Positions 8,879 to 44,478 of a stretch of 64,000 nt of DNA are shown here, in pieces. The stretch covers positions 9,701 through 73,700 of the forward strand of contig JAISJR010000006.1 of the NCBI GenBank assembly GCA_031261425.1. Direction: 5' to 3'. The position numbers were made by a program, and so were the translations under genes. The notes below the pieces were generated by a model. That model ran no database searches. It was not told the origin of the DNA and was given only the letters and a program-made list of their open reading frames with translations. This DNA is from Planctomycetota bacterium (lineage in GTDB: Bacteria > Planctomycetota > SZUA-567). The first letter of the stretch is position 1, and each line of letters opens with the position of its first letter.

Positions 8879-11776
8879 ATGAATGCGGCTCGCCATTTTA
8901 TCGCCAAGTGCCGGCGGAAAGGTTACAGCGACGACAGAATTCGGACGGCGGCGGCGGGGAAATCCGTCATTTTGCGCGACGATATTCTCGCGCGGTTAGC
9001 CGCCAATCCGGCGGACAATTTTGAGGCGGCGGGCGACGAGGTCTTTGCCGTCGCCGAACCGACCGTCGCCTTGGCAAGCGAGAACCTCGACGAACCGGCG
9101 AGCGTTACCGCCGTCGCCACGGACGACGCGGATGACGCGGATGACGCGGATGACGCGGATGACGACGACGCCGTCGAAGCGGTTGCGGAAGAGGTCGCGG
9201 ATGTGAGCGTTGCGGCGGCGGACGCGCCGGTCGCCACGGTCGAACAAATTGACGATTTCCCGCCGCTCGACGCGGAGTTGACGGAGTCGCTTGCCCCCGC
9301 CGTCGAAGCGGAATCCGTCGAAGCGTCCGACGACCTCTACGCCGGCTTCGCCACGGGCGATGAAAGCGATTTTCGCGACGATGCCGCCGCCGAAGCCCCC
9401 GACGAATCCGCAAGCGCGCGCGCCGCTTCCGCAATTATCTCCGAGCATCTCCCCGCAATCACCGCGGAAATTATTTTGGCGATTACGCCGTCAAACGCGG
9501 CGACTCCGCCCGCGCCAACGCCGTTGGCGGACATAATTTTTACCATCGAAGAACGAGTCGATTTGGCGTCCGGCTTTTTTGACGACGCGCCCGTTGCGGC
9601 AATTTCGCCGGTGGCAATCGCCGCTACTGCGCAAGCCGCACCGGCGGAACCCGTTCCGGTGGAACCCGTCTCGACGATTCCCGCTTTGGCGGAGCAATTG
9701 GCGGCGCCATACGTCGCCAGCGGCGTGCCGGTGCCGCAATTGACAATTATCACGCCGGTCGCCATCTCGCTACCGAAAAAGCGGCGTAACAAAAACGACC
9801 GCGCGCGCCCGCTCAATCCGCCGTATGCGATTAGCCAAGACGAAACGAAAAAACGGTTGGAAAGTTTGCGCGCGCTCGACGCGGAATACGAAGCGTTAAT
9901 GATTGATTTTGCCGCCGAGTTGTCGGCGCAAAAAAACGACGATTGGCGCGGCGCGGTCGAGGACTTTGACGACCTCGCGCGTCCGGCGGCGGACGTGTTG
10001 CCGCTCGCGGCGGACGAAACCGAAGAATTGCGCTTGGAAAACGCCCGCTGGCAACGCGATTGGCAGGAGGCGGCGGACGGTTATTTGATGTTGACGCTCG
10101 AATTGCAAGCCGCGCGGGAAACCGTCGGCGCGCGCGACGCGCAAATCGCGCGATTGCAAGCGGCGGCGACGCTCGGGCAAACGGCGGCGTTGGCGGCAAT
10201 GGGCAATCGTTACGACGAAATCAAAGCGGCGAATGAAAACGAACTCGCCGAACTCTCGGCGTTGCGCGCGCAAATCGCGGCGGCGCAAGCGCGTTACGAC
10301 GAGCGGGAGCGCGAGATTGCGACGTTGCAAACGCGGTTGGCGGCACAGCAATGCGCGACGCAAATCGCCGAAACGCAAATCGAAGCCGAAACGCAAGCCC
10401 TCGCCGCCGGCAAGACGGCGAACGACAACTTGCGCTACGCGACCGCGCAACTTGAACGCGAAGTCGCGGCGGTGCGGCGGAGTTTGCTGGCGAACGACCG
10501 CGCGTTTATCGAACAGGCGGGCGAAACGCGGCGCTGGCGGCAGACGGCTGACGAAGCGTTGGACGACGCGGCGGCGGTGGCGGCGCTTAACGCCGATTTG
10601 AAACGGGAAAACGCGGCGTTGGCGCGGCAGACGGCGGCGACGGCGGAAGCGCTGACCGACGCGGCGGCAATCAACGCCGATTTGAAGCACGAAAACACGC
10701 TGTTGACGCGGCAGGCGGCGGCGTCAACGTGGAAAATGGAATCGCAATACGTTGACCAGTTGGCGGGCTTGAGCGCCGAATTTGAAGCGACGGCGGCGCG
10801 GCTCGCGCAAACGGAAGCGGAAAATTCGGCGATGAATATGAAGTTGGAAACCGTCAACTTGGCGATGGAAGTGATGAACGAACGCTACGAAGAATTGGAG
10901 CGCGAATACAACGTGTTGACCAACGAAACGGTGCCGAACTTACAGAAGGACAAAGAGGATTTGGTAACGCTCGTCGGCGACGAATTTTCGCGGGCGGAGG
11001 AATACGGGCGCGTGATTTCGGTCAAGAGCCGCCGTTCCTCTTACGCGATTGTCGCGGCGGCGGCGGCGTGCGTGGCGGTGGCGATTACGCCGTTTTTCGC
11101 GATGAGCGCGTGGGAGACGAAAGAGCGCGAATTGAAAAACGTTTACGCCGAAAAAATCGAAGTCGTCGAAGAGCGCCTCGCCGCCGAAAATCAACAACTG
11201 CTCGCGTTGCGCGACGAAAGAAACCATTGGCAGGCGGCGTTGGAACAGACCGGCGCCGAGCGGCAAACGTGGCGTCAGCGCGCCACGAATTTACAGGCGG
11301 AATTGCGGTCGAGCCGCGAAGAAATCGCGCAATTGAAAGAAATCGGCGCGGCGCGGGAAGTGGCGCTGACGCGCTGGCAGGAAGCGGCGCAAAAACGCGA
11401 AACGCCCGCCGAGGAAACGCCGGTGGCGAACGGCGAGCATTACAACGGCATTAGCGGCATCGACGAATGGCTCGACTCCTCGCGCCGGCAGTCGGCGCTA
11501 ACGGCGCGGGCGGAACCGGCGCTCGTCGCCGCGGACGCGGACGACGCGCTGACGGCGAGCGCCGGCATGGTGGAAATGAAAACGGTAATCGTGCGGCGGG
11601 GCGAGGGATTGAGCCAAGTCCTCTGGCGGGTGTGCGGGCGCAACAATCCGAAATTGGTCGCGCAAGTCGCCCGTTACAATCGCCTGCACGCCGACGCGAA
11701 AGGCAATCCGGTGCTGAAAGTCGGGCAGGAAATCCGCGTGCCTTCGGCGGCGAGCGTCGCGATGCTGACGAATTGA
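8879..11776 (+). CDS. Coiled-coil protein with acidic DDADDADD repeats, one TM helix and C-terminal LysM domain
   Basis: AGGAGG RBS before ATG 8879; long Ala/Gln/Glu-rich heptad region; C-terminal 'VIVRRGEGLSQVLWRVCG...LKVGQEIRVP' LysM-like. Confidence 0.7.
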   Translation: MNAARHFIAKCRRKGYSDDRIRTAAAGKSVILRDDILARLAANPADNFEAAGDEVFAVAEPTVALASENLDEPASVTAVATDDADDADDADDADDDDAVEAVAEEVADVSVAAADAPVATVEQIDDFPPLDAELTESLAPAVEAESVEASDDLYAGFATGDESDFRDDAAAEAPDESASARAASAIISEHLPAITAEIILAITPSNAATPPAPTPLADIIFTIEERVDLASGFFDDAPVAAISPVAIAATAQAAPAEPVPVEPVSTIPALAEQLAAPYVASGVPVPQLTIITPVAISLPKKRRNKNDRARPLNPPYAISQDETKKRLESLRALDAEYEALMIDFAAELSAQKNDDWRGAVEDFDDLARPAADVLPLAADETEELRLENARWQRDWQEAADGYLMLTLELQAARETVGARDAQIARLQAAATLGQTAALAAMGNRYDEIKAANENELAELSALRAQIAAAQARYDEREREIATLQTRLAAQQCATQIAETQIEAETQALAAGKTANDNLRYATAQLEREVAAVRRSLLANDRAFIEQAGETRRWRQTADEALDDAAAVAALNADLKRENAALARQTAATAEALTDAAAINADLKHENTLLTRQAAASTWKMESQYVDQLAGLSAEFEATAARLAQTEAENSAMNMKLETVNLAMEVMNERYEELEREYNVLTNETVPNLQKDKEDLVTLVGDEFSRAEEYGRVISVKSRRSSYAIVAAAAACVAVAITPFFAMSAWETKERELKNVYAEKIEVVEERLAAENQQLLALRDERNHWQAALEQTGAERQTWRQRATNLQAELRSSREEIAQLKEIGAAREVALTRWQEAAQKRETPAEETPVANGEHYNGISGIDEWLDSSRRQSALTARAEPALVAADADDALTASAGMVEMKTVIVRRGEGLSQVLWRVCGRNNPKLVAQVARYNRLHADAKGNPVLKVGQEIRVPSAASVAMLTN

Positions 11777-11821: not shown

Positions 11822-11856
11822 AAAATCCGCGCCGCGGAGCGCGGATTTTTTATCAT
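11822..11856. terminator. Bidirectional rho-independent terminator
   Basis: 'aaaaaatccgcgccgcggagcgcggattttttat': GC stem with A-run 5' and T-run 3'. Confidence 0.7.
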
Positions 11857-12850: not shown

Positions 12851-12900
12851 CGCTCTCCAATGAGTGGGCAGTAGAACAATTACCAATTAAAAATTACAAA

Positions 12901-13140
12901 CTCACGTTACGCGCAAAAAAAAGAGAAGCCACGAATGAACAAGAAAAGAACTTAACACGAATTTTCACGAATTAGACGAATTAACACGAAACCGAGCGAA
13001 GCGAAGGTTAGTGTGCTTTCCAAATTTTTTGTCCGTTTTCCGGCTCTTTAATTTCGTGTAATTCGTGTAATTCGTGGACAAAAAATCTCTTTTTTTTTAT
13101 TCGTAAAAATTCGCGTCTTTTCGTTGACCGCGTAACATCA
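12901..13140. mobile_element. R4 MITE copy 2 (240 bp) with 7-bp TSD TTACAAA
   Basis: 'ctcacgttacgcgc...gcgtaacatcag' flanked by identical 'ttacaaa' at 12894-12900 and 13141-13147; inserted into an R2 element. Confidence 0.8.
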
Positions 13141-13242
13141 GTTACAAATTAAAGATTGCGGAGTTTGATTTTTTAAATTCGCTTCGCGCACTTTCAACTG
13201 TCAACTGTCAACTGCCCACTGCCCACTGTCCACGGCGCCCCG

Positions 13243-16200
13243 CTACTTCTCCGCCCCATACCCTAACGCCTGCGCTTGCGCGCGATACGCCGCCGCTTTT
13301 TCCGCGTCTTTTTCCACGCCGAGTCCTTCGGCGTAAATTCGCGCCAACCGCGCGACGGCGCGCGGGATTTTTTTCTCGGCGGCTTTTTCATACCACGCGC
13401 GGGCTTGCGCGTAGTCCGGCTCGCCCGTCCAACCGTTGTCGTAACTCAAACCCAAGTTCAGCATCGCGTTGCCGTCGCCCGCCTCCGCCGATTGGCGATA
13501 CCACTCCATCGCTTTTTCTTTGTCCGCCGCCGTGCCGCGACCGGTGAAAAACGCCACGCCCAAACTGTTCATCGCCGCCGCGTTGCCCGCCTCCGCCGCC
13601 TGTTGGTAATACTGAAACGCCGGCGCGTAGTCCTGGTTATGATTGTAAAGGTTCGCGAGATTGTTGAGCGCTTCGGCGCGCGCCGCCGGAGGCAAGCCGT
13701 CCGTTTCGACCGCCCGCTTCAAATCGACCAACGCCAATTCCCACTTGTTTTGCGTCATTCGCGTTTTGCCGCGCCAATAAAACGCCTCCGCCGACTGCGG
13801 GTTTAAGTCCAGCGCGTTGCCGAACAGTTGTTCCGCCGCCGCGAAATTTTTCGCCGCCAGCGCCCGCCGCCCTTCGTTGACGAGGAGCGCCGCCTGCTCG
13901 GCGTTGCTCTCGCCTTCAAGCGCCTCGTTTTCCTGCGGCGAGGGCGGCAACAGCGGCGGCGCGTCGTCGCGCGGTTTTTCGCGCGCCACGCGGTCAAGCA
14001 ACGCCAGCGTTTCCGCGTCGTTGGCGTAGCCGCGCAATTTCAGAATCTCGCGGAAAATCGCCTCGGCGACTTCGTATTGTTTCATCGCCAGCGACCGCCG
14101 CCCTTCGCCGAGCATCGCCTGATACTCCGCCGCCTGCGTCGCCTGTTGCCGGTCGTATTCGGAAATCGCGACGCCCTGCAAGTCCATTTTTTCGCCGTCG
14201 CGGTTAAATTCTTTACCCTGCGCCTTGCACGCCGACTCCAACAGCGTCAGCGCCTGCTCGTCGTCCTCGAAACCGGACAGGCGCAACGCCGCGCGCGCCA
14301 GCGTTTCGCCGCGGATGAAATTACCGGAGCGGAGCGCGTCGCGCGTTTCGTTCAACAATTCGTTAAATTCGGCGCGTTGTTGCGGCGTCGCGGCGTCGCG
14401 AATTTCCGGCTGTTGATTGTTCGCCGCCGCCAAGCCGCGTTTCGCCGTCGCGTCGTTTTCGTAGCCCTTTAATTTCCGCGCCAACTCAAACGTCCGCGTC
14501 GCGTCAACCCACGATTTTTCTTTCAGATAAACCTTGCCGCTGAAAATCAATTTGTCGTAGAGTTCGCGATTTTTCTCGCGCTGTTGCGCCAAATTTTCCG
14601 GCGAATTTTGGCTTTCGGTCAAACGGTCGGTCGCCATTTTCAACAGCGCCGTCGCCGCCGCGTCGTCCTTAAAATCCTTCCACTGCAAAACGTTGTTCAG
14701 CAATTGCACCGCCGCGTCGAATTTGCCGTCGTCCATAAATTGCTTGGCTTGCGTCATCGCCAAATTGTAAGTCGCCATATCGCGCTCCGAGCCGGCGCCG
14801 ATTTTTTCGTCGGTTTCGCGTTGTTGTTGCCGGTCGTGTTCGTATTGCGCGATGTTGCCGCCGAGTTGCGGCAACGCTTCGTTCGCCGCGCCGTCGAGCG
14901 TCAGCGCGTAGCGGTAAAGATACGCGCCGGCGACCCATTGCCGGTCGCGCAATTGCGAGGTGGCGTTGCTCAACACGGCTTCAAAATCGGTGAACTTGAC
15001 CGCGTCGCCGAGTTTGCGTTTGGCTTCGAGCGCGCGGTTTAAGCCGTCCACGGCTTGCGCGTCGTCGGCGATGCCCGGAATGACCAACGCCAACTGAAAC
15101 GCCTGTTCCGCGTAGCCCCAATTTTGCAAGGCGAGATTTTTCCGCCCTTCGTCGAGCGCCGCCTGATAAAAACGCTGACGCTCCGGCGTGGGCGCAACTT
15201 GCGTTTTTGGCGGCGCCGCCGGACGCGCGGACGCCGCCGCCGCCGGACGCGCGGCGGGCGCGACGAACTCGTCCGCGGACGCATCCGCGCCGAGCGACTC
15301 GGCGAGCGCCGGATTGACTTTTTCCAAGCCGGCGGCGGGACTCTTCGGCGACGCCACCGGCGCGTCCGCGGCGAGAAGCAGATTTTGCACTTTGCCGGTC
15401 GTGGCGGTTACGCCGCGATTGGCGGTCGGGTCGTCCAAATAACCGGGCAACTGCAACGCCAGCGCGTAATGGCGCGAGGCGGCGATAAGTTCGCCGGCGC
15501 GCTCCTGCCGCTCCGCCAAGTTAATCAGATAGCGATAAGGCGCGGAAAAATCCGGCGCCGCCGGCGCGGTCGGTCGCGGCAACGGCAGACGCAGAATCTC
15601 CGGCACGAGCGCCGTAAAAGACGGCAACGCCAGCGCGAACTCTTCGTTTTGGTCTTCCTGTCCGCCGGCTTGTTCCAAATAACGCGCGGCTTGATTCGGG
15701 TCTTTCGGCACGCCGCGCCCGCGCTGATACATATCGGCGAGACGCGCCGCGGCGCGAACGTCCCCGCGCTCGGCGGCTTGGGTGAAATAATTCGCGGCAA
15801 GCGCGTAATCGCGATTGACGCCGGCGCCGCGAAAATACATCAGCCCGTTGTTGAACAGCGCGACCGGCAAATCGCCGGCGCCGGTCAACAATTCGCGCGC
15901 CTGTTCGTAGTCGCGTTTGACGCCGCGACCGGTGAGATAACACACGCCCAGATTGTTTTTCGCCAGCGCGTCGCCGAGTTGCGCGGCGGCGGCGAACGCG
16001 GCGGCGGAGCGTTCGTTGCTCACCTGCCCGCGCAGTTTGCGCCGCTTTTCGGTCAGCCCCAAACCGCCGTCGTAATAAATGTAGCCCTGCACGACGGCGG
16101 CGGACGCGCTCGCCGGCGACGCGCTCGCCGGCGACGCACTCGCTAGCGCGGAATTTTTATATTTTTCAATCCAGTCCAACGCCGCGTCGTAAGCGCGGGC

Positions 16201-19051
16201 GTCCAACGCGAGCAACGCCTGCGCCAAAAGCGCGGGCGCGAAATTCGCGTCGCCGGCGAGGGCTTCGTTAAATTGCGTCTCGGCGTTTTTCGGGTCGGCG
16301 GCAAGCGCGAACAACACGCCGCTCGCCCACCGCCACGCCGCCGGTTGCGCGGCGCCCGTCGCGCCGGAGGCGAAAGTCGCGGCGGCGTCCGCGTATTTTT
16401 CCTGCGTGATTTGCTCCCGTGCGAGCGTCATTTGGTCGGCTAAATCCGCCGCGCGCGCCCCGTTCGCGCCGACGGCGACGGCTTGCAACACGTCGATTAA
16501 CGGACGCTCGTCCGGCGCGACTTGCGCGGCGAGCGCGGTTAATTTTTCCGCCGCCGCCGCGTAGTCCCGATTGCGCCAGTCGCGCAACACCGCCATCAAG
16601 GCGGCATAAACCGGCTCGCGGCGATTGGCGTCGCTCTGACCGGCAATCGCTTTTTGCCGTCCGGCTAACGCCGTTTCGTCGCCCGCGTAACCCGGAATCG
16701 TCAACGCCCGCGCGAAAACGCGCTCGCTGTCCGACCAGCAACCGGCAAGCAACAACTCGTTGCCGCGCCGCATCAATTCGTCGAATTGCGCATCGCCGCC
16801 ATCATCCTTCCCAATGCTCTCTTCCCTTTTCCCTTTTCCCTCTTCCCCTTTTCCCTCTTCCCTTTTCCCTTTTCCCTCTCTACTCGCCGCCTCCGCCAAC
16901 CGTTTCCCGCGAAGCGCGACTTCGTTTTTTTCGTAACCCGGCACCGCTAGCGCCAAATTGAAGACCTCGATAGCGGCGAGATAATCCTTTTGCGCGAGAA
17001 GTTTTTGCGCCTCGACGAGCGCCGCGTTGAAACTGCCGGCGCGGTCGGCGTCGGGATTGGGGTTTTGACTTGCCGCCGTCCGCACTTGTTCGCGCAAGCG
17101 CAACGCCTGCGGATTGTCGCCGTAGCCCTCGACGCTGAGCGCCCACGCGCACGCCAATTCCGCGTCTTCGTATTTTTGCGCGGCGAGATTCTGCTCGGCT
17201 TCTTTCAGCGCGGACCTGAATTTGCCGGCGCGCGCCTCGGCGAGAACTTTTTGTATGTCGGCGTCGGCGGCGTCAATGCCCGCGAGCAACGCCGTTTCCG
17301 CGTCGGTGTATTTTTGCGCGGCGAGCAATTCGCCCGCCTGTTGCAACAACGCGGCTTTACGTTCTTGTTTGGCGAGACCGTTTTGCGCGGCTTGTTTCAG
17401 TCCGGCGATTTCCGGCGCGTCGCTCCCCGCTTCGTTAAATTTCGCGAGCGCTCCGGCGTAATCCCGCTCCCGCATCAGCGCGTTGCCCTCGGCAATTAGT
17501 TGAGACGCGGCGGATTCCGCCTGCACTGCCGCCGGCAGAGACGCCGCAACCGTCGCCGATGGAATCGCGGGCAACCCTTCGTCCAATTCAAAATCCGGCG
17601 TCGCGTTCGCCGAAACCGTGCCGGTCGCCGGAACCGCGTCGTCGTCCAACTCCAAGTCCGTTGCGTCCGCGCCAACCGTCGCGGTCGGAACCGCTTCGGG
17701 AATCGCCGGCAAGTCGGACAATAAATCAAATTCCCCTCCCGCCCCTCGATTTTCCGCCAACATTATTTCGTCTTGCGGCAGTTCGTCGCGCGACGACTCG
17801 TCGCGTAGCGACCTCACCGGACGCGCGGACGCCGGCGGAATGTCAATGCTCACTTCGTTGGCTTGCGGGCTTGCCCAATCGTCGGCGATGCTTAACGCTA
17901 TTTTCTCCGCCGGTTTTTGCGGCGAAAACGCAAAACCGCCGATGATAAAGGCGAAAAATAAAACGGCGGCAACGCCCGCGTAGCGCCAAAGATTTCTTTC
18001 TCGCGCCGGCGCGGGCGCGGCGTCTTCGACCGGCGCGGGCGGCGCGTCGTCAATCAGCGCGGGCGGCGCGGGCGGCGCGGACGGGAAAAGATTGCCGATA
18101 TTCCGCGTCTCGTCGTGATGCCAACTACATTCGACTTCGGCGGCGACGCTTTCTTCGGCGAGAAATTTATCGAGGTCGGCGGCAAGTTCGCCCACCGAGG
18201 CGTAGCGCGTTGCCATCGCGCCGACGACGATATTGGCAAGCCGCGGCGGCACGGTCGGCGGCAACGCGACGCCGCCGTTTAACAGCGCCAAAAATTCCGA
18301 CCGGTCGGCGGCGCCCGCAAACGGATGTTCGCCCACGGCGAGGAAATACAAAATCGCGCCGAGCGCGTAAATATCGCCCGCGACCGTCGGTTCGCCGCCG
18401 CGCAAAATCTCCGGCGCGACATAACCGAACCGCGCGGGCGAAAACGCCGTTTCGTCATCGACTAACGGCGCGATGCCGGTGAGCAACAACCGCGCGTCAT
18501 TGGCGGCAAGCCAGATATTTTCGGGACGCAAATCGCCGTGATAAAATTCGCGCGCGTGCAGATAGGCAACCGCGTCAAGCGCGCGGCGCAGACCGGCGAG
18601 TTTTTGCGGTAGAGGCAACGCGGCGGCGTCGGCGGGCGCGAAATTTTCGAGCGGCGCTAGCACGACAAACGGCGCGGACGCGGCGTCGCGCTCCGGCGCG
18701 GCGAAAAGCCAATTGAGGCGCGGATGGCGCAAATAGACCAAATTGGCGGCGTCGCGCTGAAACCGTTGCCGGTCGGCGAGTTCGTTGGCGCGGAAAAGCC
18801 AGACCTTGCCCGTCGGCAGAGGCAGATTTTGCGCGGCGAGCATTGAGCGCAACGTCGCGGGCGACATCGACGCGAACGCGGAGCGCAACCGGCGCGCGGC
18901 GGCGGCGCGCTCGCCTATCGGCGTCGCGGCGTCAACCTGACTGTAAGCGTAAAGTTCCGCCGCGTCAAAATCGTCGGCGACCGCGGCAAAGAGCGAGCCC
19001 AAACGCAAATTGCGGAGCAAAGTTTGCTTGGCAAACATAATAGTCCCCATC
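13243..19051 (-). CDS. Giant membrane protein: degenerate protein-kinase-like N-domain + TM + ~1500 aa of TPR/Sel1 repeats
   Basis: 'HGDLRPENIW' catalytic-loop-like and 'FGYVAPE' APE motifs but no Gly-loop/VAIK and no DFG ('TGIAP'); one TM helix; long TPR and C-terminal Sel1-like repeats; start codon uncertain (19038 or 19051). Confidence 0.75.
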
Positions 19052-19198
19052 GTTTTCCGGTGAACGCGCGCCGGACGCGAACTTGCCGCGCGCAAGAAAA
19101 GAAACAAGAAAAAAAACAAGGACAAGTGTATGAAAAAATCGCCGAAATCTAACGAAATTTTCAACTTTTTGCGGAGTGATAATTTAGCCGCCGGTCGG

Positions 19199-20062: not shown

Positions 20063-20602
20063 ATGAAAAAGATGCGAAGCACGACGATTATTTCGGCGCG
20101 GCGCGGCGGGAAAGTCGCGATTGGCGGCGACGGGCAAGTATCGCTCGGCGACACGGTGTTGAAAAGTTCGGCGCGGAAAATTCGCGAATTGATGAACGGC
20201 AAAGTGCTGGTCGGCTTTGCCGGCGCGACGGCGGACGCCTTCACGTTGCTCGAACGCTTCGAGGAAAAACTCGGCGAATACCCGAACAACGTTCGCCGCG
20301 CCGCGATTGAAATGGCGAAATTGTGGCGCACCGACCGCGTCCTGCGCCATCTCGAAAGTATGATGATTGTGATTGACCGCGACTATTCGCTGATTCTCGG
20401 CGGTAGCGGCGACGTGATTGAATCCGACGACGACATTCTGGCAATCGGCTCCGGCGGGCAATTCGCGACGGCGGCGGCGCGGGCGCTGATGCGCCACACT
20501 GCATTGGACGCCGAACAAATCGTCCGCGAATCCCTGAAAATCGCCGGCGAAATCTGCGTCTATACCAACGACCAAATCATCGTGCAGACGCTTGGCGAAT
20601 AG
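20063..20602 (+). CDS. hslV: ATP-dependent protease subunit HslV
   Basis: '[35 protein letters not shown]...' N-terminal Thr nucleophile region and full-length HslV similarity; precise start ambiguous. Confidence 0.85.
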
Positions 20603-20629
20603 AGTTCAGAGTTCAGAGTTGAAAAAGAT

Positions 20630-20832
20630 GCTCTATTCAATTGCCACGCCTTTTAAGGCGTGGTAGGCGGTCAAAAAAAAGAAAGGGCTTTAGCCCAAAA
20701 TAAAAAATGCGGTCTCATTCCACCGGCTTTAACCGAACAATTGTTCGGGGCTAAAGCCCATTTATTTTTTCTGACCGCCCACGAAAAAACCGCCCCGTTA
20801 AAGGGCGGTTTTATCAATTCGTTGCAACTCGC
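20630..20832. repeat. R3 element, degenerate copy (left 21-bp TIR intact, right end decayed)
   Basis: Begins 'gctctattcaattgccacgcc'; internal 'gggctttagccc...ggggctaaagccc' hairpins match complete copies at 34186 and 44479. Confidence 0.65.
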
Positions 20833-20866
20833 GAGCATCCGGTTACGCCGTCGGGGCGCCGAATCG

Positions 20867-21718
20867 TTACCGCTGGATGCCGCCGCCATAATAGCCGTAT
20901 TTAACGCGGAAATTTTCTTGCGCCGCGCTTAATTTTTCCCAAAGATATTTGTCGCCGGACAACGCCGCGGTGATTTTCTCTCGCTCTTCCACGCTTAAAA
21001 AAGTCCGTCCGCCGCTCGGGTCAGCGCTTCTAATGCCGACTTGATAAACGGCGGCGCGATTGAAACTCTGGGCTTGCACCGAAGCGTATTTGGCAAGTTC
21101 GGGATTGACGCCCGCGTTTTTCAATTTTTTTCGCACGTAATCAAAAAGCGCGTCGCGCTCCGCCATACTCTCAAATTCCATATCCGTAAAAAAATTGTCT
21201 TGCACCGTTTCGACGAATTGCCCGTTGCGCTCCGCCACCGTGTGGCTCCAACCCTTGGCGTCGGGAAGCACTCGCGAAATTTCTTGCAATACCTCGCGGT
21301 GATACACCGAGTCGTAAACACCGTTAGGTATGCGCGGGTCGCCGCCGCCGGCGTTCCGCGCGGCAATTTCGGCAAAGTCATAGACCTGGTTTTCGTCGAG
21401 CGTTACCACGTATGCCGGTTCATTCCACAGCGACGGTTTTTCCGCGCTCGCTTCCGGTTTCAACATTCGCAAAATGCTGTGCGTTTTTATATCGCCGCGC
21501 AACGCCGCCGTGATTTCGTCTTTGTTCGCGACGTCGCCGAGAACTTTAACCTTGCCGTTTTCGTCGAGGTCAAGCGAAAACTCGCCTTCGGCTTTGACGC
21601 CGGCGCGTTCCAACACCGCCGCCGCGTGGTCAGCCAAGACGTCTTCGACGCCGCGCGGTTTGACGGTCGCTTGCTTGTAATAATTGACGTAATCGCTCGC
21701 GTTTATGGAGTTAGACAT
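20867..21718 (-). CDS. Hypothetical protein, paralog A of a tandem pair (repeated 'ITAALSGD' motif)
   Basis: 283-aa ORF clearly homologous to 22866..23789 ('LDLDENGKVKVLGD', 'KITAALSGDKYL'). Confidence 0.65.
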   Translation of the reverse strand: MSNSINASDYVNYYKQATVKPRGVEDVLADHAAAVLERAGVKAEGEFSLDLDENGKVKVLGDVANKDEITAALRGDIKTHSILRMLKPEASAEKPSLWNEPAYVVTLDENQVYDFAEIAARNAGGGDPRIPNGVYDSVYHREVLQEISRVLPDAKGWSHTVAERNGQFVETVQDNFFTDMEFESMAERDALFDYVRKKLKNAGVNPELAKYASVQAQSFNRAAVYQVGIRSADPSGGRTFLSVEEREKITAALSGDKYLWEKLSAAQENFRVKYGYYGGGIQR

Positions 21719-21989
21719 TTTCTCGCCTCCTGAATAATTGATTTGATACCATCCTCTTCCGAAGAATAAAACTCTATCGAATTTTTATTACGGAAGAGGA
21801 CAAAATTAGGATAAATAATGAATTTATTTTTCCTGATCGGATACTTGTTTCTCATCTGGCGTATTCGCCGGCGTGAAAATTGGTCTCGCCAGAAAATTAC
21901 GTTTGTCTTCTCTTGACGATAGATTTTTATGTTCGTCGGACAATGAATTTTCAACCACGACAGGTGATTTAGATTCTATGTCTGTCTTT

Positions 21990-22140
21990 CGAGATATACG
22001 GCGGCGCGTTTTGCTTCTTTAATTAAAAATCGGGACCACGTTAAAAAAAAAAGTAAAATTTTTCAGAATGGTTTTTATTGACCGCGCAAGGCGGGGCGAC
22101 CGGCGAAGATTTTATTAAACAGGTCTAATCGCCGAAATTC
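21990..22140. repeat. Duplicated ~150-bp 5' block, copy 1 (second copy at 23829..23975)
   Basis: Near-identical 'cgagatatacggcggcgcgttttgcttctttaattaaaaatcgggaccacgtt...atggtttttattgaccgcgcaaggcggggcgaccggcg'. Confidence 0.75.
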
Positions 22141-22251
22141 GCCAATAAATCGCGATTTATCGTCTTGACAATCGCGGTGTTTATTTATCCAATTCACGCC
22201 TCGTTTTTTCGCGCGAGGATTATTCCGTCCGATAAATACAACGGTAAAAAA

Positions 22252-22560
22252 ATGGAATTTGACGAAGACGAATTTGCGTGGAGCGAGTGGAAAAATCGCG
22301 TTAATCGGCGCAAACACGGAATTTCATTTGCAGAAGCCGTTGAAATTTTTGCCGACCCGCATTTGTTGGAAGTTCCCGACGAGGAACATTCAATCAATGA
22401 GGAACGTTATATTTGTTACGGCTGTATTGATGATTTGATTTTGGCGGTCGTGATTGCCGATACCGGCGAACAGACGCGGCTAATTTCGGCTCGCCGCGCC
22501 TCCCCCCACGAAGAGAAAGTTTATTATGCCTATTACCGCGCCGCGCTTGGCGGAAATTAA
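22252..22560 (+). CDS. brnT: BrnT-like (DUF497) ribonuclease toxin
   Basis: 'MEFDEDEFAWSEWKNRVNRRKHGISFAEAVEIF...ISARRASPHEEKVY' matches the BrnT/DUF497 pattern. Confidence 0.7.
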   Translation: MEFDEDEFAWSEWKNRVNRRKHGISFAEAVEIFADPHLLEVPDEEHSINEERYICYGCIDDLILAVVIADTGEQTRLISARRASPHEEKVYYAYYRAALGGN

Positions 22561-22723
22561 AGCGTTCAAAAATGTCGATTTTTCCGATTGTCCGCCGCTC
22601 ACCGGCGAACAGGCGGCGCGGTTGCGTCCGTCGCGACACCGCGAACGCGCCGCCGCGCATCGTTTAGCGCGGCAAATGGCGGAAGCCGCCGCTTTCGGCA
22701 AAGAGGAGGTCTTACTGCGATAA
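22526..22723 (+). CDS. Putative BrnA-like antitoxin partner (weak)
   Basis: Small ORF overlapping the 3' end of brnT, contains 'KNVDFSD' like BrnA N-termini; start may be TTG 22547. Confidence 0.35.
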   Translation: MPITAPRLAEIKAFKNVDFSDCPPLTGEQAARLRPSRHRERAAAHRLARQMAEAAAFGKEEVLLR

Positions 22724-22740
22724 ATTTAGCGTTTAGCGTT

Positions 22741-22838
22741 AGACAAACACGCCGTCATCGTCTTCGACGCCGCGCGGTTTGGTCGTCGCTTGCTTGTAGT
22801 AATTGACGTAATCGCTCGCGTTTATGACGTTAGACATT
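22741..22838 (-). pseudogene. N-terminal fragment of a third copy of the 20867/22866 paralog family
   Basis: Minus strand encodes 'MSNVINASDYVNYYKQATTKPRGVEDD...', near-identical to paralog A N-terminus including its RBS region, then breaks off. Confidence 0.55.
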
Positions 22839-22865
22839 TTCTCGCCTCCCGAACAACCCGACTTA

Positions 22866-23789
22866 TTACGCCATCTGAATACCGCGCTTACTCACGCCGT
22901 TATGCATTCCGTAAATATCCCGCATTTGGGCGGCATACTTGTTTTGCGCGGACACCAAACTATCAAGAAGATATTTATCGCCGGACAGCGCCGCGGTGAT
23001 TTTTTGCTTTTCGTCGTCGCTCAACGGCGCGTAATGAGCCGCGTTCGCGACGATTTCATAGCGGTCGCTACGCCAATCATAATTGAGGTCTAACGTCGCG
23101 CGCTTGACGACTTCCGCGTCGATACCCGCGTTTTGCAGTTTTTTCAGCGTGTAATCGAAAAGTTTTTCGCGCTCGTCCATACTGTCAAAATCCATTCCCG
23201 CGAAAAAAATGTCTTCCCGCTTTTCCAACCACTGGTCGTTGGCGATGTCATTGACGTTGCGATGTAGCCAGCCGCGGTCTTCGACTTCCCATAAATGTTC
23301 CGGCTGACGTTTTTCCACCTCTTTGAATACTTCTCGCAGGTAATGTTGTTGATACAGTTTGTCCAAAAGCGCGTTGCCGCCGGCGTAAGGCGCCGGCGTA
23401 TCGGCAAGCCGGTGAACGCCCTCGCTGAGGTCAACGATGCTGGAACGCGAGTCCCACAGCGACGCATTTTCTGCGTCCGCCGAATTTTCAACCGCCGGCG
23501 CGGGCTTTAACCAACGCAAAATGCTGAGGGTTTTCATATCGCCGCTCAACGCCGCCGTGATTTCGTCTCGGTTCGCGGCGTCGCCGAGAACTTTGACCTT
23601 GCCGTTTTCGTCGAGGTCAAGCGACAAGTCGCCGGCGTTTTTTATGCCCGCGCGTTCAAGCACCGCATTGACGTGCGCGTTCAAACTTTCTTCGACATTG
23701 CGGTATTGGGACGCCGGTTTTTCGAGAACGGCAAGGACGTAATTGTTCAGATAACCGTTTGCCGCCGGCAACATTTGGTTGGGTATCAT
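22866..23789 (-). CDS. Hypothetical protein, paralog B of tandem pair
   Basis: 307-aa ORF homologous to 20867..21718. Confidence 0.65.
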   Translation of the reverse strand: MIPNQMLPAANGYLNNYVLAVLEKPASQYRNVEESLNAHVNAVLERAGIKNAGDLSLDLDENGKVKVLGDAANRDEITAALSGDMKTLSILRWLKPAPAVENSADAENASLWDSRSSIVDLSEGVHRLADTPAPYAGGNALLDKLYQQHYLREVFKEVEKRQPEHLWEVEDRGWLHRNVNDIANDQWLEKREDIFFAGMDFDSMDEREKLFDYTLKKLQNAGIDAEVVKRATLDLNYDWRSDRYEIVANAAHYAPLSDDEKQKITAALSGDKYLLDSLVSAQNKYAAQMRDIYGMHNGVSKRGIQMA

Positions 23790-23960
23790 TGTTGTTTCTC
23801 CTCCGCCGAAAAAATCAACCCCATCAACGAGATATACGGCGGCGCGTTTTGCTTCTTTAATTAAAAATCGGGACCACGTTAAAAAAAATTAAAATTTTTC
23901 AGAATGGTTTTTATTGACCGCGCAAGGCGGGGCGACCGGCGGAGATTTTATTAAACCGGG

Positions 23961-25795: not shown

Positions 25796-26014
25796 ATGGC
25801 TACCACCAAAAAAACGCCGGCGGCAAAAGCCCCCGCGAAAAAAACAGCGGCGACGAAAGCGCCCGCGAAAAAAGTAGCGGCGGCAAAAGCCCCCGCGAAA
25901 AAAGCGACCGCCAAAGCGCCGGTCAAGAAAGTCGAAAAGAAAGTGGAAAAAGTCGCCGCGTCCAAAGCGCCGGCGAAAAAATGCACGACCTCCTGCGGTT
26001 GCAAAAAGAAATAA
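25796..26014 (+). CDS. Histone H1-like Lys/Ala-rich nucleoid protein (KAPAKK repeats)
   Basis: RBS 'aaagaggg' before ATG; 'TKKTPAAKAPAKKTAATKAPAKKVAAAKAPAKKATAKAPVKK'; followed by a terminator at 26037. Confidence 0.6.
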   Translation: MATTKKTPAAKAPAKKTAATKAPAKKVAAAKAPAKKATAKAPVKKVEKKVEKVAASKAPAKKCTTSCGCKKK

Positions 26015-26036: not shown

Positions 26037-26072
26037 AACCCGCGCCGATGTCCCCCGGCGCGTTTTTTGTTG
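26037..26072 (+). terminator. Rho-independent terminator
   Basis: 'cgcgccgatgtcccccggcgcg' stem followed by 'ttttttgtt'. Confidence 0.7.
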
Positions 26073-26094: not shown

Positions 26095-26212
26095 CGAATT
26101 AAAAATTACAAATTAAAAATTAAAAATGATGGAGTTTGATTTTCAAATTGCGCGAAACGAATTTGAGAATCAAACTCCGCAATTTTTAATTGTGAATTTT
26201 TAATTGTGAATT
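26095..26212. repeat. R2 element (complete)
   Basis: 'aattaaaaattacaaattaaaaattaaaaat' - 'ggagtttgattttcaaattgcgcgaaacgaatttgagaatcaaactcc' - 'gcaatttttaattgtgaatttttaattgtgaatt'. Confidence 0.8.
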
Positions 26213-26215
26213 GCC

Positions 26216-27307
26216 CTACCCGAATTTTCCGCTCGCGATTTTGCCGAAACATTCCAACAACTTCGCCGAGACGACGCGCGAGGAAAATTCTTTTTCGACG
26301 CGCGAGCGCGCGTTATACGCCAGCGCCGCCCGCTTCGGCGGATTTTTCAGCAAGTCGCTAATCGCCTCGCTCATCGCTTTCGCGTCCTGACTTTTCACCA
26401 ACAAACCGGTTTCGCCGTCTTTGACCAAATCGAAAATGCCGCCCACGCCGCTCGCCACCACCGGCACGCCGCTCGCCATCGCCTGCAACACCGACAAGCC
26501 GAACCCCTCGCGATGCGTCGGCTCCACAAAAACGTCGATGTTCATCAGATTGTGCGAGCCGCCCATCGTGCTGAACGAAAACGTCAGCCGGTTGTCGATG
26601 CCAAGACCCCCGGCTTCGTCGCGCAAATACTGTTTGTCCGCGCCCTCGCCCATAATCAAAAATTCGACGTCAAAGCCCTGCGCAATCACTAACGCCGCCG
26701 CTTTGAGAAAATCGCGTTGCCCTTTGTTTTCGGCTAACGTGCCGTAAGTGCCGACGACCAACGTCCGCGTTTTTTGGTCCGCGTTGACGAGCAGACGCGA
26801 CGGGGACGCCGGAAACTGCCGCAGGTCCAAACCGTTCGGCACGATAAAAATGCGCTCTTCCGGCAGACGCAAATGCAAAATCAGCGGCGTGCGAATCGCG
26901 TCCGACAAGGCGACGACGCCCCAGTTGACTTGATTCAACGGCAGTTTGCGCAGATATTTTTCGCCGTCGGTGCGGTTGACCGTCAGCGCCAGCGGCGCGC
27001 CGCAACGCTTCGCGACGGGGACGCCGAGCGCCGCGACTTCGACGCAAGTCGTGTTGACGATTTCCGGCTTAAACGCGCGCGTTAGTTTGCGCCCGCGCCA
27101 GTCGAACCAGCCGCCGAGTCCGGGCAGGACGTATTCGGAAATTTTGCGCGCGTCGATTTGGCGGAACATTCCGACCCGCTCGCCGCCGCGCGGCGCGACG
27201 ACCATTATTTCACAACCGGCGGCGACTAAATCCGGCAACAGATTCAGCGTGGCGAACGCCGCGCCGGAGAGACCGAAATCGGGAAGGATTTGCAGGATGC
27301 GCTTCAT
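26216..27307 (-). CDS. Glycosyltransferase family 4
   Basis: GT4 C-terminal fold ('...EGFGLSVLQAMASGVPVVAS...'). Confidence 0.8.
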   Translation of the reverse strand: MKRILQILPDFGLSGAAFATLNLLPDLVAAGCEIMVVAPRGGERVGMFRQIDARKISEYVLPGLGGWFDWRGRKLTRAFKPEIVNTTCVEVAALGVPVAKRCGAPLALTVNRTDGEKYLRKLPLNQVNWGVVALSDAIRTPLILHLRLPEERIFIVPNGLDLRQFPASPSRLLVNADQKTRTLVVGTYGTLAENKGQRDFLKAAALVIAQGFDVEFLIMGEGADKQYLRDEAGGLGIDNRLTFSFSTMGGSHNLMNIDVFVEPTHREGFGLSVLQAMASGVPVVASGVGGIFDLVKDGETGLLVKSQDAKAMSEAISDLLKNPPKRAALAYNARSRVEKEFSSRVVSAKLLECFGKIASGKFG

Positions 27308-27387
27308 AGGTAGAGTTTTTTTTTAGAGTTTAGAGTTGAGATCTGAGAGTTGAGAGTTAAGAGTGATGACGTTTGGCGTTCGACTAA

Positions 27388-27510
27388 TGAATTAAAAATT
27401 ACAAATTAAAAATTAAAAATTTCGGATTGATTATCAAAATTGCGCAAAGCGAATTTGAAAATCAAACTCCGTCATTTTTAATTTTTAATTTTTAATTTGT
27501 AATTGGAAAC
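27388..27510. repeat. R2 element (complete), preceded by an R1 heptamer arm 27309-27367
   Basis: Same arms and hairpin core as 26095. Confidence 0.8.
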
Positions 27511-28284: not shown

Positions 28285-28290
28285 TTTTGT

Positions 28291-28446
28291 CAGAGTTGAG
28301 AGTTTAGAGTTCAGAGTTGAGAGTTGAAAGTTTAGAGTTGAAAGTTGAAAAAAAGGATTAGGGGCAAGGGTTAGGGGTTAGAGGCGAAATTGCCCCCCTG
28401 TTCTCTCTCTTAACTCTCAACTCTAAACTCTCAACTCTGAACTCTC
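28291..28446. repeat. R1 heptamer-array palindrome with G-rich variable core
   Basis: Left '(agagttg/agagttt/agagttc)n', right '(caactct/aaactct)n', core 'aggattaggggcaagggttaggggttagagg...cccccc'. Confidence 0.8.
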
Positions 28447-29871: not shown

Positions 29872-29985
29872 CAGAGTTAAGCGTTGAGAGTTTAGAGTTG
29901 AGCAGAGGTCGCGCTTCGCGCATTATTAAAATAACTCCACTGCTCAACTCTCAACTCTCAACTCTCAACTCTAAACTCTACTCTT
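29872..29985. repeat. R1 heptamer-array palindrome (canonical core)
   Basis: 'agagtttagagttgagcagaggtcgcgcttcgcgcattattaaaataactccactgctcaactctcaactct...'. Confidence 0.85.
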
Positions 29986-30772: not shown

Positions 30773-31867
30773 TTAATTGCCCGACCGCACCAACTCCGCC
30801 GTGCCGCGTCCGGTCAGCCGGACTTTGTAAGTGCGTTTGCCGTCGCCGGCGCTTTGCACCGTGATATAGTCGCCGACTTTGCCGCCGCTGACCGCGACCG
30901 TTCGCTCTTCGATGACGAAGCCGTCGCCGCCGGCGCGGACAATCACCTCGTCGCTTTTTTTGACGATTTCCGGCGTGCCGAAATCCGCCGCCGACAGCGG
31001 CGCGCCGGCGCGCAAGGCGCGGCGACATTCGCGTCCGCGCAACGACGCCAGCGTCAGCCGTTCGGGGCGCGTGCCGGCGTATTTTTCAAATTGCATCGCA
31101 ATATCGCCGTCGCCGATAATATCGCCCGCGTTCATCGACCGCGCCAAAACCGGCGTGCTTAATTCGACCTCGACAAACATTTCCGCCGTGCCGTAATCGC
31201 TGAGGTTGCCCTGACCGTCGTAGGTCGTCAGGTCAACCACGAGCCGCCCCGGAATCCGCCCCTGCCGCACGCCGGTAATTTCCAGCGTTTCATAATCCTT
31301 GCGCGTCATCGTTACGCGCCGCACGTCGATTTTCGCCCGCGCCTCAATGCCGCTGAATTCATTGTCAATAAATTTGTCGAGCGATTTTTTCAACGCCTTT
31401 TCGGTCTTGGCGTCCACCGCGCCGGGGCGCTCCGCCCGTTGCGCCGGAATGACCGCGATTGCCGGGGTTGGTTTTGCCGCCGCCCCCACGACCGGCAACG
31501 CTTTTGCCGGCAGATTAGTCGTCGCCGGATTCGGTTTGTTCGCGCTATTTGCCGCCGGCGCCGGCGGACGGGCGGCGACGGTAACGCAGACCTTTTCACT
31601 GCCGGCGAAAACGACGTCGCGGTCGAGTCCGAGCGTCCGCAGACGCTCGCGCAGTTCGGGGCGCGTGAACGTTTTTTGTCCGCCGCGCGCCGGCGCGGGC
31701 GCGAGAAATTGCTTCCTAATCAGCGTCGCGTGGTCGCCGCTAATCGCGCCGAGGTCGGCGAAACAGATGTATTCGCTCCCCGCCGTCGCGACCTCCGCGA
31801 GCGTGATGACCGTGTCGGCGAAAGCGGCGGGAGCGAGAGTCAGGAGTAGCGCGAGAACTTTTTTCAT
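30773..31867 (-). CDS. flgA: Flagellar basal-body P-ring formation chaperone FlgA (SAF domain)
   Basis: C-terminal 'LRGRECRRALRAGAPLSAADF...VKKSDEVIVRAGGDGFVIEERTVAVSGGKVGDYITVQSAGDGKRTYKVRLTG' matches FlgA/SAF. Confidence 0.7.
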   Translation of the reverse strand: MKKVLALLLTLAPAAFADTVITLAEVATAGSEYICFADLGAISGDHATLIRKQFLAPAPARGGQKTFTRPELRERLRTLGLDRDVVFAGSEKVCVTVAARPPAPAANSANKPNPATTNLPAKALPVVGAAAKPTPAIAVIPAQRAERPGAVDAKTEKALKKSLDKFIDNEFSGIEARAKIDVRRVTMTRKDYETLEITGVRQGRIPGRLVVDLTTYDGQGNLSDYGTAEMFVEVELSTPVLARSMNAGDIIGDGDIAMQFEKYAGTRPERLTLASLRGRECRRALRAGAPLSAADFGTPEIVKKSDEVIVRAGGDGFVIEERTVAVSGGKVGDYITVQSAGDGKRTYKVRLTGRGTAELVRSGN

Positions 31868-31888
31868 TGGTCTATTCCATTGTTTAAC

Positions 31889-31992
31889 AGAGTTTGGAGT
31901 TAAGAGTTTAGAGTTTAGCAGAGGTGGCGCTTCGCGCATTTTTAAGATAACTCCACTGCTCAACTCTAAACTCTGAACTCTAAACTCTATCT
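31889..31992. repeat. R1 heptamer-array palindrome (canonical core)
   Basis: '...gagtttagcagaggtggcgcttcgcgcatttttaagataactccactgctcaactctaaactct...'. Confidence 0.85.
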
Positions 31993-32812: not shown

Positions 32813-32917
32813 CAGAGTTGAGAGTTGAAAGTTTAGAGTTGAGCAAAGGTCGCGCTTCGCGCATTTTTAAGATAACTCCACTGCTAAACTCTCAACTCTA
32901 AACTCTCAACTCTCTCT
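32813..32917. repeat. R1 heptamer-array palindrome (canonical core)
   Basis: Same arms and core. Confidence 0.85.
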
Positions 32918-33747: not shown

Positions 33748-33775
33748 TTTTTACTCGTTTCGTTGTCGGCAAGCA

Positions 33776-33898
33776 ATTGAAAATTAACAATTAACAATTG
33801 TGGAGTTTGATTTTTAATTCGCTTCGCGAAATTTTGACCGCGAACGCCTCAATTGTGAATTGTTAATTGTCAATTGTTAATTGTTAATTGTTAATTCT
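33776..33898. repeat. R2 element
   Basis: 'caattgaaaattaacaattaacaattg' - 'tggagtttgatttttaattcgcttcgcgaaattttgaccgcgaacgcctc' - 'aattgtgaattgttaattgtcaattgttaattg...'. Confidence 0.8.
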
Positions 33899-34185
33899 CT
33901 CTCAATCGCCGTGCCATTTTCGCCGTTTGGCGCATCTCATCGGTTAAAGTTGAAAAATCCGCCGCGTGGTCTATCGGCAAAAACCGGCAAAAAGAATAGA
34001 AAAATTTCCGAACAAAGTTTGCGCGGCGGGAATAAATATCTGCAAGTTTTTTTTGCGGCGGCGATGATTTTATTTACCGGCAGGCAAAAATTGCCTGTTG
34101 CGCGTTTTTTCATTTGGCTTGTTTCTTATCTCGCGGAGGCACGGAGAACACGGATAAATTCAATTATTGGTGGATGCTCTATTCA

Positions 34186-35893: not shown

Positions 35894-35957
35894 TCGACTC
35901 GATTTGCGGTCTAAAAATAAAAAATGCCACGCCGTTTTGTTCGGCGTGGCATTTTTT

Positions 35958-37506
<1,549 letters not shown>

Positions 37507-42930: not shown

Positions 42931-43020
42931 GGAGATAGAGTTTAGAGTTTAGAGTTGAGAGTTGAGAGTGCGCGAAGCGAATTATAAAAATAAAACTCCG
43001 ACAGCCGCCCTGTAAGGGCG

Positions 43021-44329: not shown

Positions 44330-44478
44330 AAACTCGTGTTACGCGCAAAAATAAAATCCCCCGATTTATCAGGCAAAGAAGCGTCGTCCGCAGATAACGC
44401 GGATAACTACAAAAAAAACGTTTTTATCCGCGCTAATCCGCGTTATCCGCGGACAAAGTTCTTCGGGGCAACCGCAAC

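Follow-up and report, generated by a model that had tools for sequence, protein, structure and literature searches.

REP, BIME and REPIN sequences are high-copy, short and imperfect extragenic palindromes that lie mostly just past open reading frames (ORFs) and in operons; two inverted units give a long hairpin, insertion leaves no target duplication, copies are lineage-specific and serve as targets of insertion sequences (PMC3733652, PMC3116915). The heptamer repeats of the STRR/TAACTGA kind, known from cyanobacteria, Beggiatoaceae and Bacteroidetes, are direct arrays mostly ending 1 nt before starts, with one inverted pair among 170 sets (PMC4679880). Here we analyse a repeat named R2, flagged at 26097-26215 of a 64,000-nt stretch (the window) of a Planctomycetota metagenome-assembled genome, together with its sister genomes "Planctomycetales bacterium MS499-59" (BNUQ01) and a third one (BOAH01); about 230 kb of the three were read overall. 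[quoted passage not shown] We read R2 as one sub-type in a superfamily of palindromic repeats that are lineage-specific, non-coding and non-autonomous, selfish DNA of the REPIN/MITE kind that colonises spacers, and put the probability of this reading at roughly 60%.

The family shares with REP, BIME and REPIN the niche past ORFs, the hairpin-dimer layout, the absent target duplication, lineage-specific copies and the use as insertion target: with 27 loci in 64 kb, its members are extragenic palindromes of high copy number that lie mostly downstream of ORFs. Contrary to REPs, its arms are variable tandem heptamer arrays, its conserved part is rich in A and T, the centre being a separate GC mini-palindrome, and no RAYT (Y1 HUH transposase) was found in the ~230 kb. 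As defined in PMC3733652, REPs carry a GTAG or CGTC tag; both tags are absent from the conserved half GGAGTTTGATTTTCAAATTCGC and from the variable half in the 44 copies listed, and R2 is not a REP in the strict sense.

With bacterial MITEs such as Correia/NEMIS, Nezha and RUP the family has in common a size of 100-300 bp, terminal inverted repeats (TIRs), an intergenic position and presence/absence polymorphism between close strains; like them, it may overlap ORF ends and sit in promoter regions. The inverted heptamer arms act here as TIRs, and hybrids with non-complementary arms exist. Unlike in MITEs, however, these TIRs are minisatellite arrays whose units change in sequence and number from copy to copy, and the family has no known parent insertion sequence, none being seen in the sequence examined. 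R4 and R5, two elements nested in the family, are conventional MITEs; the family itself is not.

Like the STRR/TAACTGA repeats (PMC4679880), the arms are direct, intergenic arrays of tandem 7-bp units, 2-13 copies long, with stop codons in forward orientation and mixed variant units; unit number varies between relatives and adjoining spacers tend to rearrange. The units differ nonetheless, being AATTAnn or AGAGTTn and not TAACTGA or CCCCAGT, the arrays stand as inverted pairs around a core and abut stops, and Planctomycetota, the phylum of this host, is missing from the reported taxa. For a core inside heptamer repeats, the closest precedent is the small dispersed repeats (SDR) of Nostoc punctiforme, which Elhai et al. 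reportedly described in 2008 as very small hairpin repeats of 21-27 nt nested in tandem heptamer arrays and MITEs; the core studied here, in contrast, is about 50 nt long and modular, with arrays inverted on its two sides. Inverted heptamer arms around a modular core are apparently undescribed: our literature search returned nothing on these assemblies and no account of a conserved modular core flanked by inverted heptamer arrays, be it in Planctomycetota or elsewhere.

Modular architecture of the element

The flagged R2 element is complete and spans 119 bp (26097-26215), between the stop codon (26216-26218) of a GT4 glycosyltransferase gene on the minus strand (26216-27307) and a conventional bidirectional intrinsic terminator with a GC stem and A and T runs on either side (26041-26062). 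This terminator adjoins the element but lies outside it, and is kept in all three sister genomes. The left arm (26097-26127, plus strand) holds 4.4 tandem heptamers, AATTAAA/AATTACA; the right arm (26181-26215, plus strand) holds five inverted ones, AATTTTT/AATTGTG, and abuts the GT4 stop codon. Between them, the 48-nt core (26131-26178) reads GGAGTTTGATTTTCAAATT-GCGCGAAACG-AATTTGAGAATCAAACTCC, where AATTTGAGAATCAAACTCC is a near-complement of the conserved half GGAGTTTGATTTTCAAATT. As single-stranded DNA (ssDNA), the element folds at -29.2 kcal/mol (z -7.6).

A sequence-only reading of this DNA had described AT-rich arms around a perfect 48-bp hairpin with a GCGAAGC loop. The arms are borne out: the 18-mer AATTAAAAATTACAAATT, at three mismatches or fewer, has 50 matches against 0.13 expected, at about 17 loci. 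The hairpin is not perfect. The sequence quoted for it matches once, at 26131-26178 on the minus strand, with one mismatch in the stem and a second in the loop, which turns the motif into a degenerate GCGAAAC; a perfect GCGAAGC hairpin does not define the family. In the window and 90 further loci, the flagged copy is the only one to carry the conserved 19-mer on both sides of its core.

Using Tandem Repeats Finder and a custom period-7 scan, we detected 37 AT-rich heptamer arrays in the window, paired around a core as a 5' purine-rich and a 3' pyrimidine-rich arm. R2 arms are tandem AATTAnn units on the left and their complement on the right; the number of units spans 2 to 13, and arms may be unequal or absent. 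The heptamers are varied (AATTAAC, AGAGTTG, CAGTGGG, AGTTGGT), with stepwise gradients of units inside single arrays, such as CAATTAA>GAATTAA>GAATTGA or AGAGTTG>AAAGTTG>GAAGTTG>GAAATTG, and hybrids combine different arm families left and right (e.g. 47056-47185).

Throughout the superfamily the modules follow one order: heptamer array, half-core, GC-rich mini-palindrome GCGC-GAA-GCGC, half-core, inverted array. The element is in fact two half-elements placed head to head at GCGC-GAA-GCGC, each made of an A-R-T-T-R-n-n array and a half-core starting with GGAGT. Read on its GAA strand, a typical R2 consists of an arm, a variable half (consensus GGAGTAATTATCAAAATT), GCGCGAAGCG, the conserved half AATTTGAAAATCAAACTCC and the second arm. 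By fuzzy matching, the core consensus of R1, a repeat with AGAGTTG arms, also matches the variable (second) halves of R2 at four edits or fewer, against zero matches in a shuffled-sequence control. To judge from these sequences, the R1 core is a one-sided homologue of the R2 core, and R2 and R1 are two sub-types of one modular superfamily.

The 22-nt conserved half, with its small internal palindrome TTTGA-TTT-TCAAA, is identical in at least 16 MS499-59 loci and three window copies with divergent flanking arms; it is conserved in sequence, not in structure. Whole elements fold as long ssDNA hairpins (-18 to -36 kcal/mol, z from -3.7 to -11). Among 22 distinct cores, half-to-half pairing is not conserved, compensatory changes are absent and a weak local hairpin (-4.9 kcal/mol) is all that recurs. 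Nor are the two arms generally mirrored locus by locus, a pattern that would imply in-situ symmetrisation everywhere: when arms of different loci were paired, 143 of 354 combinations scored as well as or better than a locus' own pairing.

The motif GCGAAGC is enriched between genes. It occurs 25 times in the intergenic DNA of the window, about 7-fold over the 3.7 expected (maximum 11 in 300 simulations), and its one-substitution variants are depleted there; over the whole window its 47 occurrences, 36.7 being expected, are no significant excess, as 7 of 100 shuffles reach that count. Most family members carry exact GCGAAGC (or GCGAAAGC), including 18 intergenic CGCGAAGCG, whereas the flagged locus reads GCGCGAAACG; the motif occurs in either orientation relative to the rest of the core. 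Related GAA-triloop hairpins, CGCGCT-GAA-AGCGCG and GGTCGC-GAA-GCGACC, recur in the same spacers. The sequence-only reading had remarked that R1 and R2 share GCGAAGC. This is no independent recurrence: the motif is common to both because their cores share descent.

In the literature, d(GCGAAGC) is a mini-hairpin known from single-strand replication origins, which melts at 76.5 °C, the RNA version being much weaker and TTC loops unstable (PMC13037366). The GCGC-GAA-GCGC of the family holds this exact motif; unlike it, the flagged locus has the degenerate GCGAAAC, and the family uses the motif in both core orientations. Being stable as DNA and weak as RNA, the hairpin favours an ssDNA intermediate over a role in RNA. 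A lagging-strand priming signal was considered and rejected, as the GAA strand is split 9:9 between the two strands of the window.

Gain, loss and turnover in sister genomes

The conserved 19-mer is concentrated in MS499-59, its matches in other genomes being single chance ones. The window and MS499-59 are distinct assemblies with genes 89-96% identical; the third genome came to light by way of the protein cluster of GT4. The two sister assemblies are GCA_025997475.1 and GCA_026001705.1. All three genomes hold 5.7-6.1 arrays per 10 kb. No array was found in 63 kb (loci L045, L047 and L048) of the nearest other relatives, whose GT4 is 45-54% identical, nor in the 10-kb L046, for a total of 73 kb. 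Core hits in metagenomes (40 matches) and viruses (2 matches) include none in an element context and are chance matches only; BLAST against plasmids and phages gave no match to the family.

Elements come and go whole, together with their arms, at the 3' ends of genes. The flagged site is empty in the third genome (GGTAGGG-TAAT-CGGTCAACTCC), with clean boundaries; in the window and MS499-59 it is occupied by the whole element with its arms, a few nucleotides past the GT4 stop and upstream of the terminator common to all three. Likewise, MS499-59 lacks the entire composite element of 12878-13233 at the orthologous site. Comparison of filled and empty sites at both 26097-26215 and 12878-13233 reveals no target duplication, and a classical MITE is rejected on this ground. 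Outer boundaries of the elements have no common insertion target, flank motif or duplication.

Arms grow and shrink in 7-bp steps, fast enough for orthologues to carry different heptamers. The R2 upstream of GT4 (27390-27507; from arm to arm, a variable half, GCGCAAAGCG and the conserved half AATTTGAAAATCAAACTCC) has orthologues in all three genomes. Its conserved half is nearly unchanged; in its arms and in the adjoining CAACTCT array the genomes differ by entire heptamers, exactly one unit in the case of MS499-59 and the third genome, and synteny breaks at the outer edge of this R2. That adjoining array, a lone one of AGAGTTG type at 27325-27364, lies between this R2 and the GT4 start codon and varies in unit number over the three genomes. 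At 51524-51627, an R1-type element in the window, the core is similar in both genomes, whereas the arms are switched on both sides, AGAGTTG-type in the window and CAATTAA-type in MS499-59.

Half-cores are replaceable and the central loop is invertible. Between the flagged copy and its MS499-59 counterpart, the right arm and right half-core are conserved, exactly one heptamer apart; the central loop is inverted (CGTTTCGCG versus CACGAAGCG) and the left half-core is replaced, the window copy alone being self-complementary. The near-perfect hairpin is therefore a derived, local state. The presence of the core itself differs in one orthologous pair, coreless at 6748-7037 in the window and with a core in MS499-59, which bears on the core moving apart from its arms.

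In the spacer between the VWA and proteasome-like genes, MS499-59 has an R2-like element, to which the third genome adds five more units and an R4 MITE accompanied by a GCGCTTCGCGC module; in the window, a 3.3-kb low-GC islet stands there instead. This islet (20623-23960, about 51% GC), found in neither sister genome, encodes a BrnT-family toxin (22165-22560) and two ORFs with no Pfam match, and one of its edges abuts a heptamer array (20601-20620).

As to mechanism, replication slippage in the arrays may account for the changes in the arms, and template switching across the hairpin, with exchange or gene conversion between copies, for the replaced half-cores and inverted loops; the latter events could have made the flagged copy a near-perfect hairpin. 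The GCGAAGC strand may fold into an unusually stable ssDNA mini-hairpin that nucleates the structure, and the elements would spread by means of an enzyme supplied in trans.

Selfish repeat or host structure

The 27 family loci of the window total 3982 bp, that is 6.2% of its length and 38% of the DNA between its genes. The loci are found in spacers of all three kinds, co-directional, convergent and divergent, next to ordinary, large and syntenic housekeeping genes in all orientations; relative to co-directional genes, the conserved half is oriented at about 14:11. The gap to the stop codon has a median of 1 nt, with the stop inside the first heptamers in 10 of 25 cases, and the gap to the start codon a median of 21 nt. 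Such a stop-flush and start-clear placement is consistent with what purifying selection on tolerated insertions would leave. Any effect on transcripts, from a long hairpin in 3' untranslated regions or between cistrons, is probably a side effect and not the reason why the family exists.

The main rival is that the host uses the elements as RNA hairpins, as with REP/BIME in Escherichia coli: they would protect transcripts from 3'-5' decay, permit RNase III-type processing or bring stop and start together at the hairpin base. We regard this as unlikely, if the least so of the alternatives. The elements begin about 1 nt from stops and finish about 21 nt before starts, and lie between probably co-transcribed genes: three R1 elements sit inside the flagellar cluster of flgF/G-like, flgG, flgA, flgH and flgI. 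Predicted RNA hairpins reach about -22 to -70 kcal/mol, a palindrome works as a hairpin without any orientation bias, and the element at 51524-51627 is kept at its orthologous site despite complete replacement of its arms. On the other hand, the sense RNA is the more stable strand in no more than 4 of 11 comparisons (p = 1), the 22 cores lack compensatory changes, many arms are non-complementary or hybrid, and the GAA mini-hairpin is stable as DNA, not RNA. Elements lie in divergent and convergent spacers too, and two sites, the flagged one included, are vacant in sister genomes whose flanking genes are intact.

A strand-specific structured RNA or small RNA was rejected, there being no Rfam family, no sense-strand bias and no covariation. 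At gathering thresholds, Rfam 15 recognises a tRNA-Leu only in the whole window; over the flagged element, a permissive scan gives generic-hairpin hits only, at 29.5 bits or less against cut-offs of 61.7-200 bits.

Less likely than the RNA hairpin, and in our view improbable, are arrays of binding sites for a nucleoid-associated, partition-like or regulatory DNA-binding protein, in which a central bend or recognition module would be surrounded by heptamers serving as repeated half-sites. Plasmid centromeres, where heptamer boxes flank a central site, offer a comparable layout; the units keep a strict 7-bp register, with A-R-T-T-R-n-n kept through turnover, and three units (21 bp) make two helical turns. 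The 22-nt half, with its TTTGA-TTT-TCAAA palindrome, is conserved as sequence, and elements lie in divergent promoter spacers. Yet the heptamers vary widely, as do the 2 to 13 units of arms that may be unequal or missing, the sites are dispensable in sister genomes, and no candidate protein was identified.

A bidirectional intrinsic terminator, i.e. a hairpin followed by U-rich heptamers (AAUUUUU) on both strands, we deem very improbable and reject. It is true that the R2 3' arm is T-rich after the hairpin on either strand, and that many copies lie directly past stop codons, some of them between convergent genes. But conventional terminators, GC stems with T-runs, already stand beside the flagged element (26041-26062) and beside the R1-type element at 35956-36107 (35919-35957), with another at 11826-11856, and they persist where R2 is absent, as in the third genome. 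Moreover, a consensus scan calls no element, R1 arms (CAACTCT) yield no U-tract, and elements are found between genes of the flagellar cluster. Since they are unlikely to be terminators, the elements should not be annotated as such.

Integron attC-like sites separating cassettes are effectively refuted: the alternation of gene and element, imperfect palindromes of 100-130 bp, a tyrosine recombinase gene between two R2 copies and the loose likeness of the heptamers to the 7-bp attC core GTTRRRY are outweighed by a recombinase, the only tyrosine one, of XerD type (it scores 324 bits with the XerD model, but 137 and 86 bits where the integron-integrase cut-offs are 265 and 435), by flanking genes that are large, syntenic and housekeeping in all orientations, and by attC sites having no tandem heptamers.

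Several points weigh against the selfish repeat that we favour. No transposase, RAYT or other mobilising-enzyme candidate was found with Pfam or NCBIfam among 40 window proteins, and the gene lists of L091 and L093 hold no transposase gene, with about 230 kb of the three genomes covered, so that transposition itself is inferred. With three genomes and no outgroup, gain and precise loss are indistinguishable at the two polymorphic sites. Near-saturated spacers and an element kept at its orthologous site through full arm turnover also fit a structure used by the host, and so do the invariant polarity, with the purine-rich arm 5' and the pyrimidine-rich arm 3', and the filled divergent promoter spacers. 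The restriction of the arrays to period 7 goes beyond slippage alone. Finally, as arm mirror symmetry is not general (143/354), the hairpin may not be needed in every copy.

It is quite unlikely that the arms are not passive products of slippage, in that they are made and maintained by a dedicated activity, or else the elements serve the host. In the first case, a hairpin- or single-strand-specific enzyme would recognise the 22-nt half and the GAA mini-hairpin and add or remove 7-bp steps on both sides, and the elements would form a new class of self-extending palindromic mobile DNA. In the second, they would be a genome-wide punctuation of gene boundaries for the host: stops in all frames from the purine-rich arm, a hairpin between genes, and a pyrimidine-rich arm leading into the next start.

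Nested MITEs, further copies and significance

R2 had also been proposed as a landing pad for other elements, and this is partly supported: its AT-rich arms are a favoured insertion site of R5, an unrelated MITE. R4 or R5 indeed lies inside R2-type elements at the four places first named (2517-2819, 12878-13233, 52418-52700 and 54800-55073), and also at 6748-7037 and 44316-44761. R5 is a conventional TIR MITE with ends ACTCACGTTACGCG... and ...CGCGTAACATCAGT and 5-bp duplications TCTTA, TACAA, TAAAA and GAGGA. Three of its four window copies, and about seven of eight independent events overall, fall in AATT-type arms, and its ends abut AATT-type heptamers in about nine of ten cases; no R5 was found in the equally abundant AGTT-type arrays. 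AATT arrays make up 15-25% of the suitable AT-rich intergenic target sites, which gives the R5 excess P about 0.01-0.05 in the window and 1e-5 to 4e-4 overall, the latter figure including loci picked for containing R2. What holds is insertion of R5 into AATT arms; a preference for R2 as such is indistinguishable from one for extremely AT-rich heptamers. R4 ends are regularly preceded by a GCGCGAAGCGC module. The 3.3-kb islet and two synteny breaks coincide with elements as well.

The alternative suggestion, R2 as the ancestral scaffold of composite elements, is not needed. Removing R5 (44332-44653) and one TAAAA duplication from the left arm of the element at 44316-44761 restores an ordinary R2, so that R5 composites are secondary insertions. 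At 12878-13233, a hybrid with an AATT-type left arm, the conserved half and a CAACTGT/CCCACTG right arm, R5 lies at 12900-13142 (duplication TACAA); at 6748-7037 it sits at 6798-7012 between coreless AATT arms (TCTTA); at 54800-55073 a two-unit AATT array precedes the R5 at 54824-55067, with the duplication GAGGA just outside the array. R4 occurs at 2517-2819, where AATT arms and two GCGCGAAGCGC modules surround the MITE (2586-2756), and at 52418-52700, where an R2 left half is fused to it (52501-52689).

The remaining R2 copies illustrate the freedom of the modules. The core is degenerate at 4198-4310, in a divergent spacer beside the tRNA-Leu, and longer at 58604-58735, where both flanking ORFs terminate within the arms. 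The copy at 33775-33899 comprises the conserved half, CGCTTCGCG and a diverged second half between asymmetric arms of 3 and 7 units; the one at 53761-53880, between a hypothetical gene and the XerD-like gene, has perfectly mirrored arms of 33 bp and a core without GCGAAGC. At 46392-46448 there is a half element with mini-palindrome, conserved half and right arm only, and the hybrid at 47056-47185 joins an AGAGTTG-type left arm, an R2-type core and a TAATTGT-type right arm.

R1-type elements with AGAGTTG/CAACTCT arms and a one-sided core are represented at 29873-29980, between flgH and flgI; further R1-type elements lie at 31889-31989, between flgG and flgA, and at 32814-32914, between the flgF/G-like gene and flgG. 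The R1-type element at 35956-36107 has arms of 3 and 13 units, an extreme asymmetry: 13 perfect CAACTCT units (36017-36107) face three on the left, and the array overlaps the 3' end of a GT2 gene (36100-37506). Two R1-armed elements have other centres. One, with a G-rich core (28290-28446), marks a synteny break against MS499-59, and its centre at 28353-28385 is the telomere-like AAGGATTAGGGGCAAGGGTTAGGGGTTAGAGGC, which could have G-quadruplex potential. The other, at 50073-50217, has an (AGGTAAA)n array as its centre and takes up a divergent spacer except for 22 and 5 nt before the two start codons. Such a heptamer, (AGGTAAA)n or (AGGGAAA)n of up to about 10 units and with no inverted partner, replaces the core between AGAGTTG/CAACTCT arms at 50124-50152 of the window and at 6096-6169 of locus L010.

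AGGGAAA is also the unit of a coding array: a period-7 array of TTCCCTT (AGGGAAA on the coding strand) lies at 16822-16877, inside a 1973-aa Ser/Thr-kinase/Sel1-type ORF (13243-19164). The array region exists in MS499-59 too, its start differing in sequence, and the orthologues are 1950 and 1956 aa long. In ORF 8861-11776, in-frame repeats of GGATGACGC (five times) and of an 18-nt GTCGAAGAC-type unit occupy 9120-9164 and 9600-9700 (about 3100-3200 in L005), and their copy number differs between the window and MS499-59.

Two smaller modules are dispersed among the elements. CCGACAG-CGCGCTGAAAGCGCG, a GAA-triloop hairpin, is repeated at 42972-43100 and 46340-46375 of the window and at about 3130-3200 of L004; at two loci it precedes a larger palindrome (…CAGCCCAGGGT…ACCCTGGG…) and a perfect hairpin GGTCGC-GAA-GCGACC at 43078-43092. 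TTGCTCnCTCTTGGTTATCGAACAGGTCTAnT, which may be an extended R4 MITE end or a separate small repeat, is found beside R2 cores or R4 ends at 46345-46365 and 52690-52715 of the window and at about 6995-7040 of L018, 3535-3580 of L004, 7905-7950 of L036 and 9830-9870 of L091. Positions 25796-26014 encode a 72-aa Lys/Ala-rich, histone-H1-like protein with AAKAPAKK repeats and the C-terminus CTTSCGCKKK; it is conserved in all three sister genomes and matches no Pfam or NCBIfam family. Sigma-70-like promoters in the arms amount to weak 9-of-12 matches only, 12 of them against 5.4 ± 2.4 expected.

ORFs that read into arms take a TAA of the array as their stop (e.g. 58706-58735, 53761-53767), and start calls based on the longest ORF likewise extend into elements (e.g. 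30773-31963, 51550-52413). Automated annotation of this genome will therefore misplace gene ends. In practice, the elements break assemblies, supply stops to truncated ORFs, mislead start calling and mark hot spots of MITE insertion and rearrangement.

With 38% of spacer DNA in one modular repeat superfamily, this is an extreme case of intergenic colonisation in a little-studied phylum. The family unites palindromic REP/MITE-like elements and tandem heptamer repeats, which are usually described apart, and the comparison of three genomes makes the lineage a useful natural system for the co-evolution of palindromes and minisatellites in bacteria.

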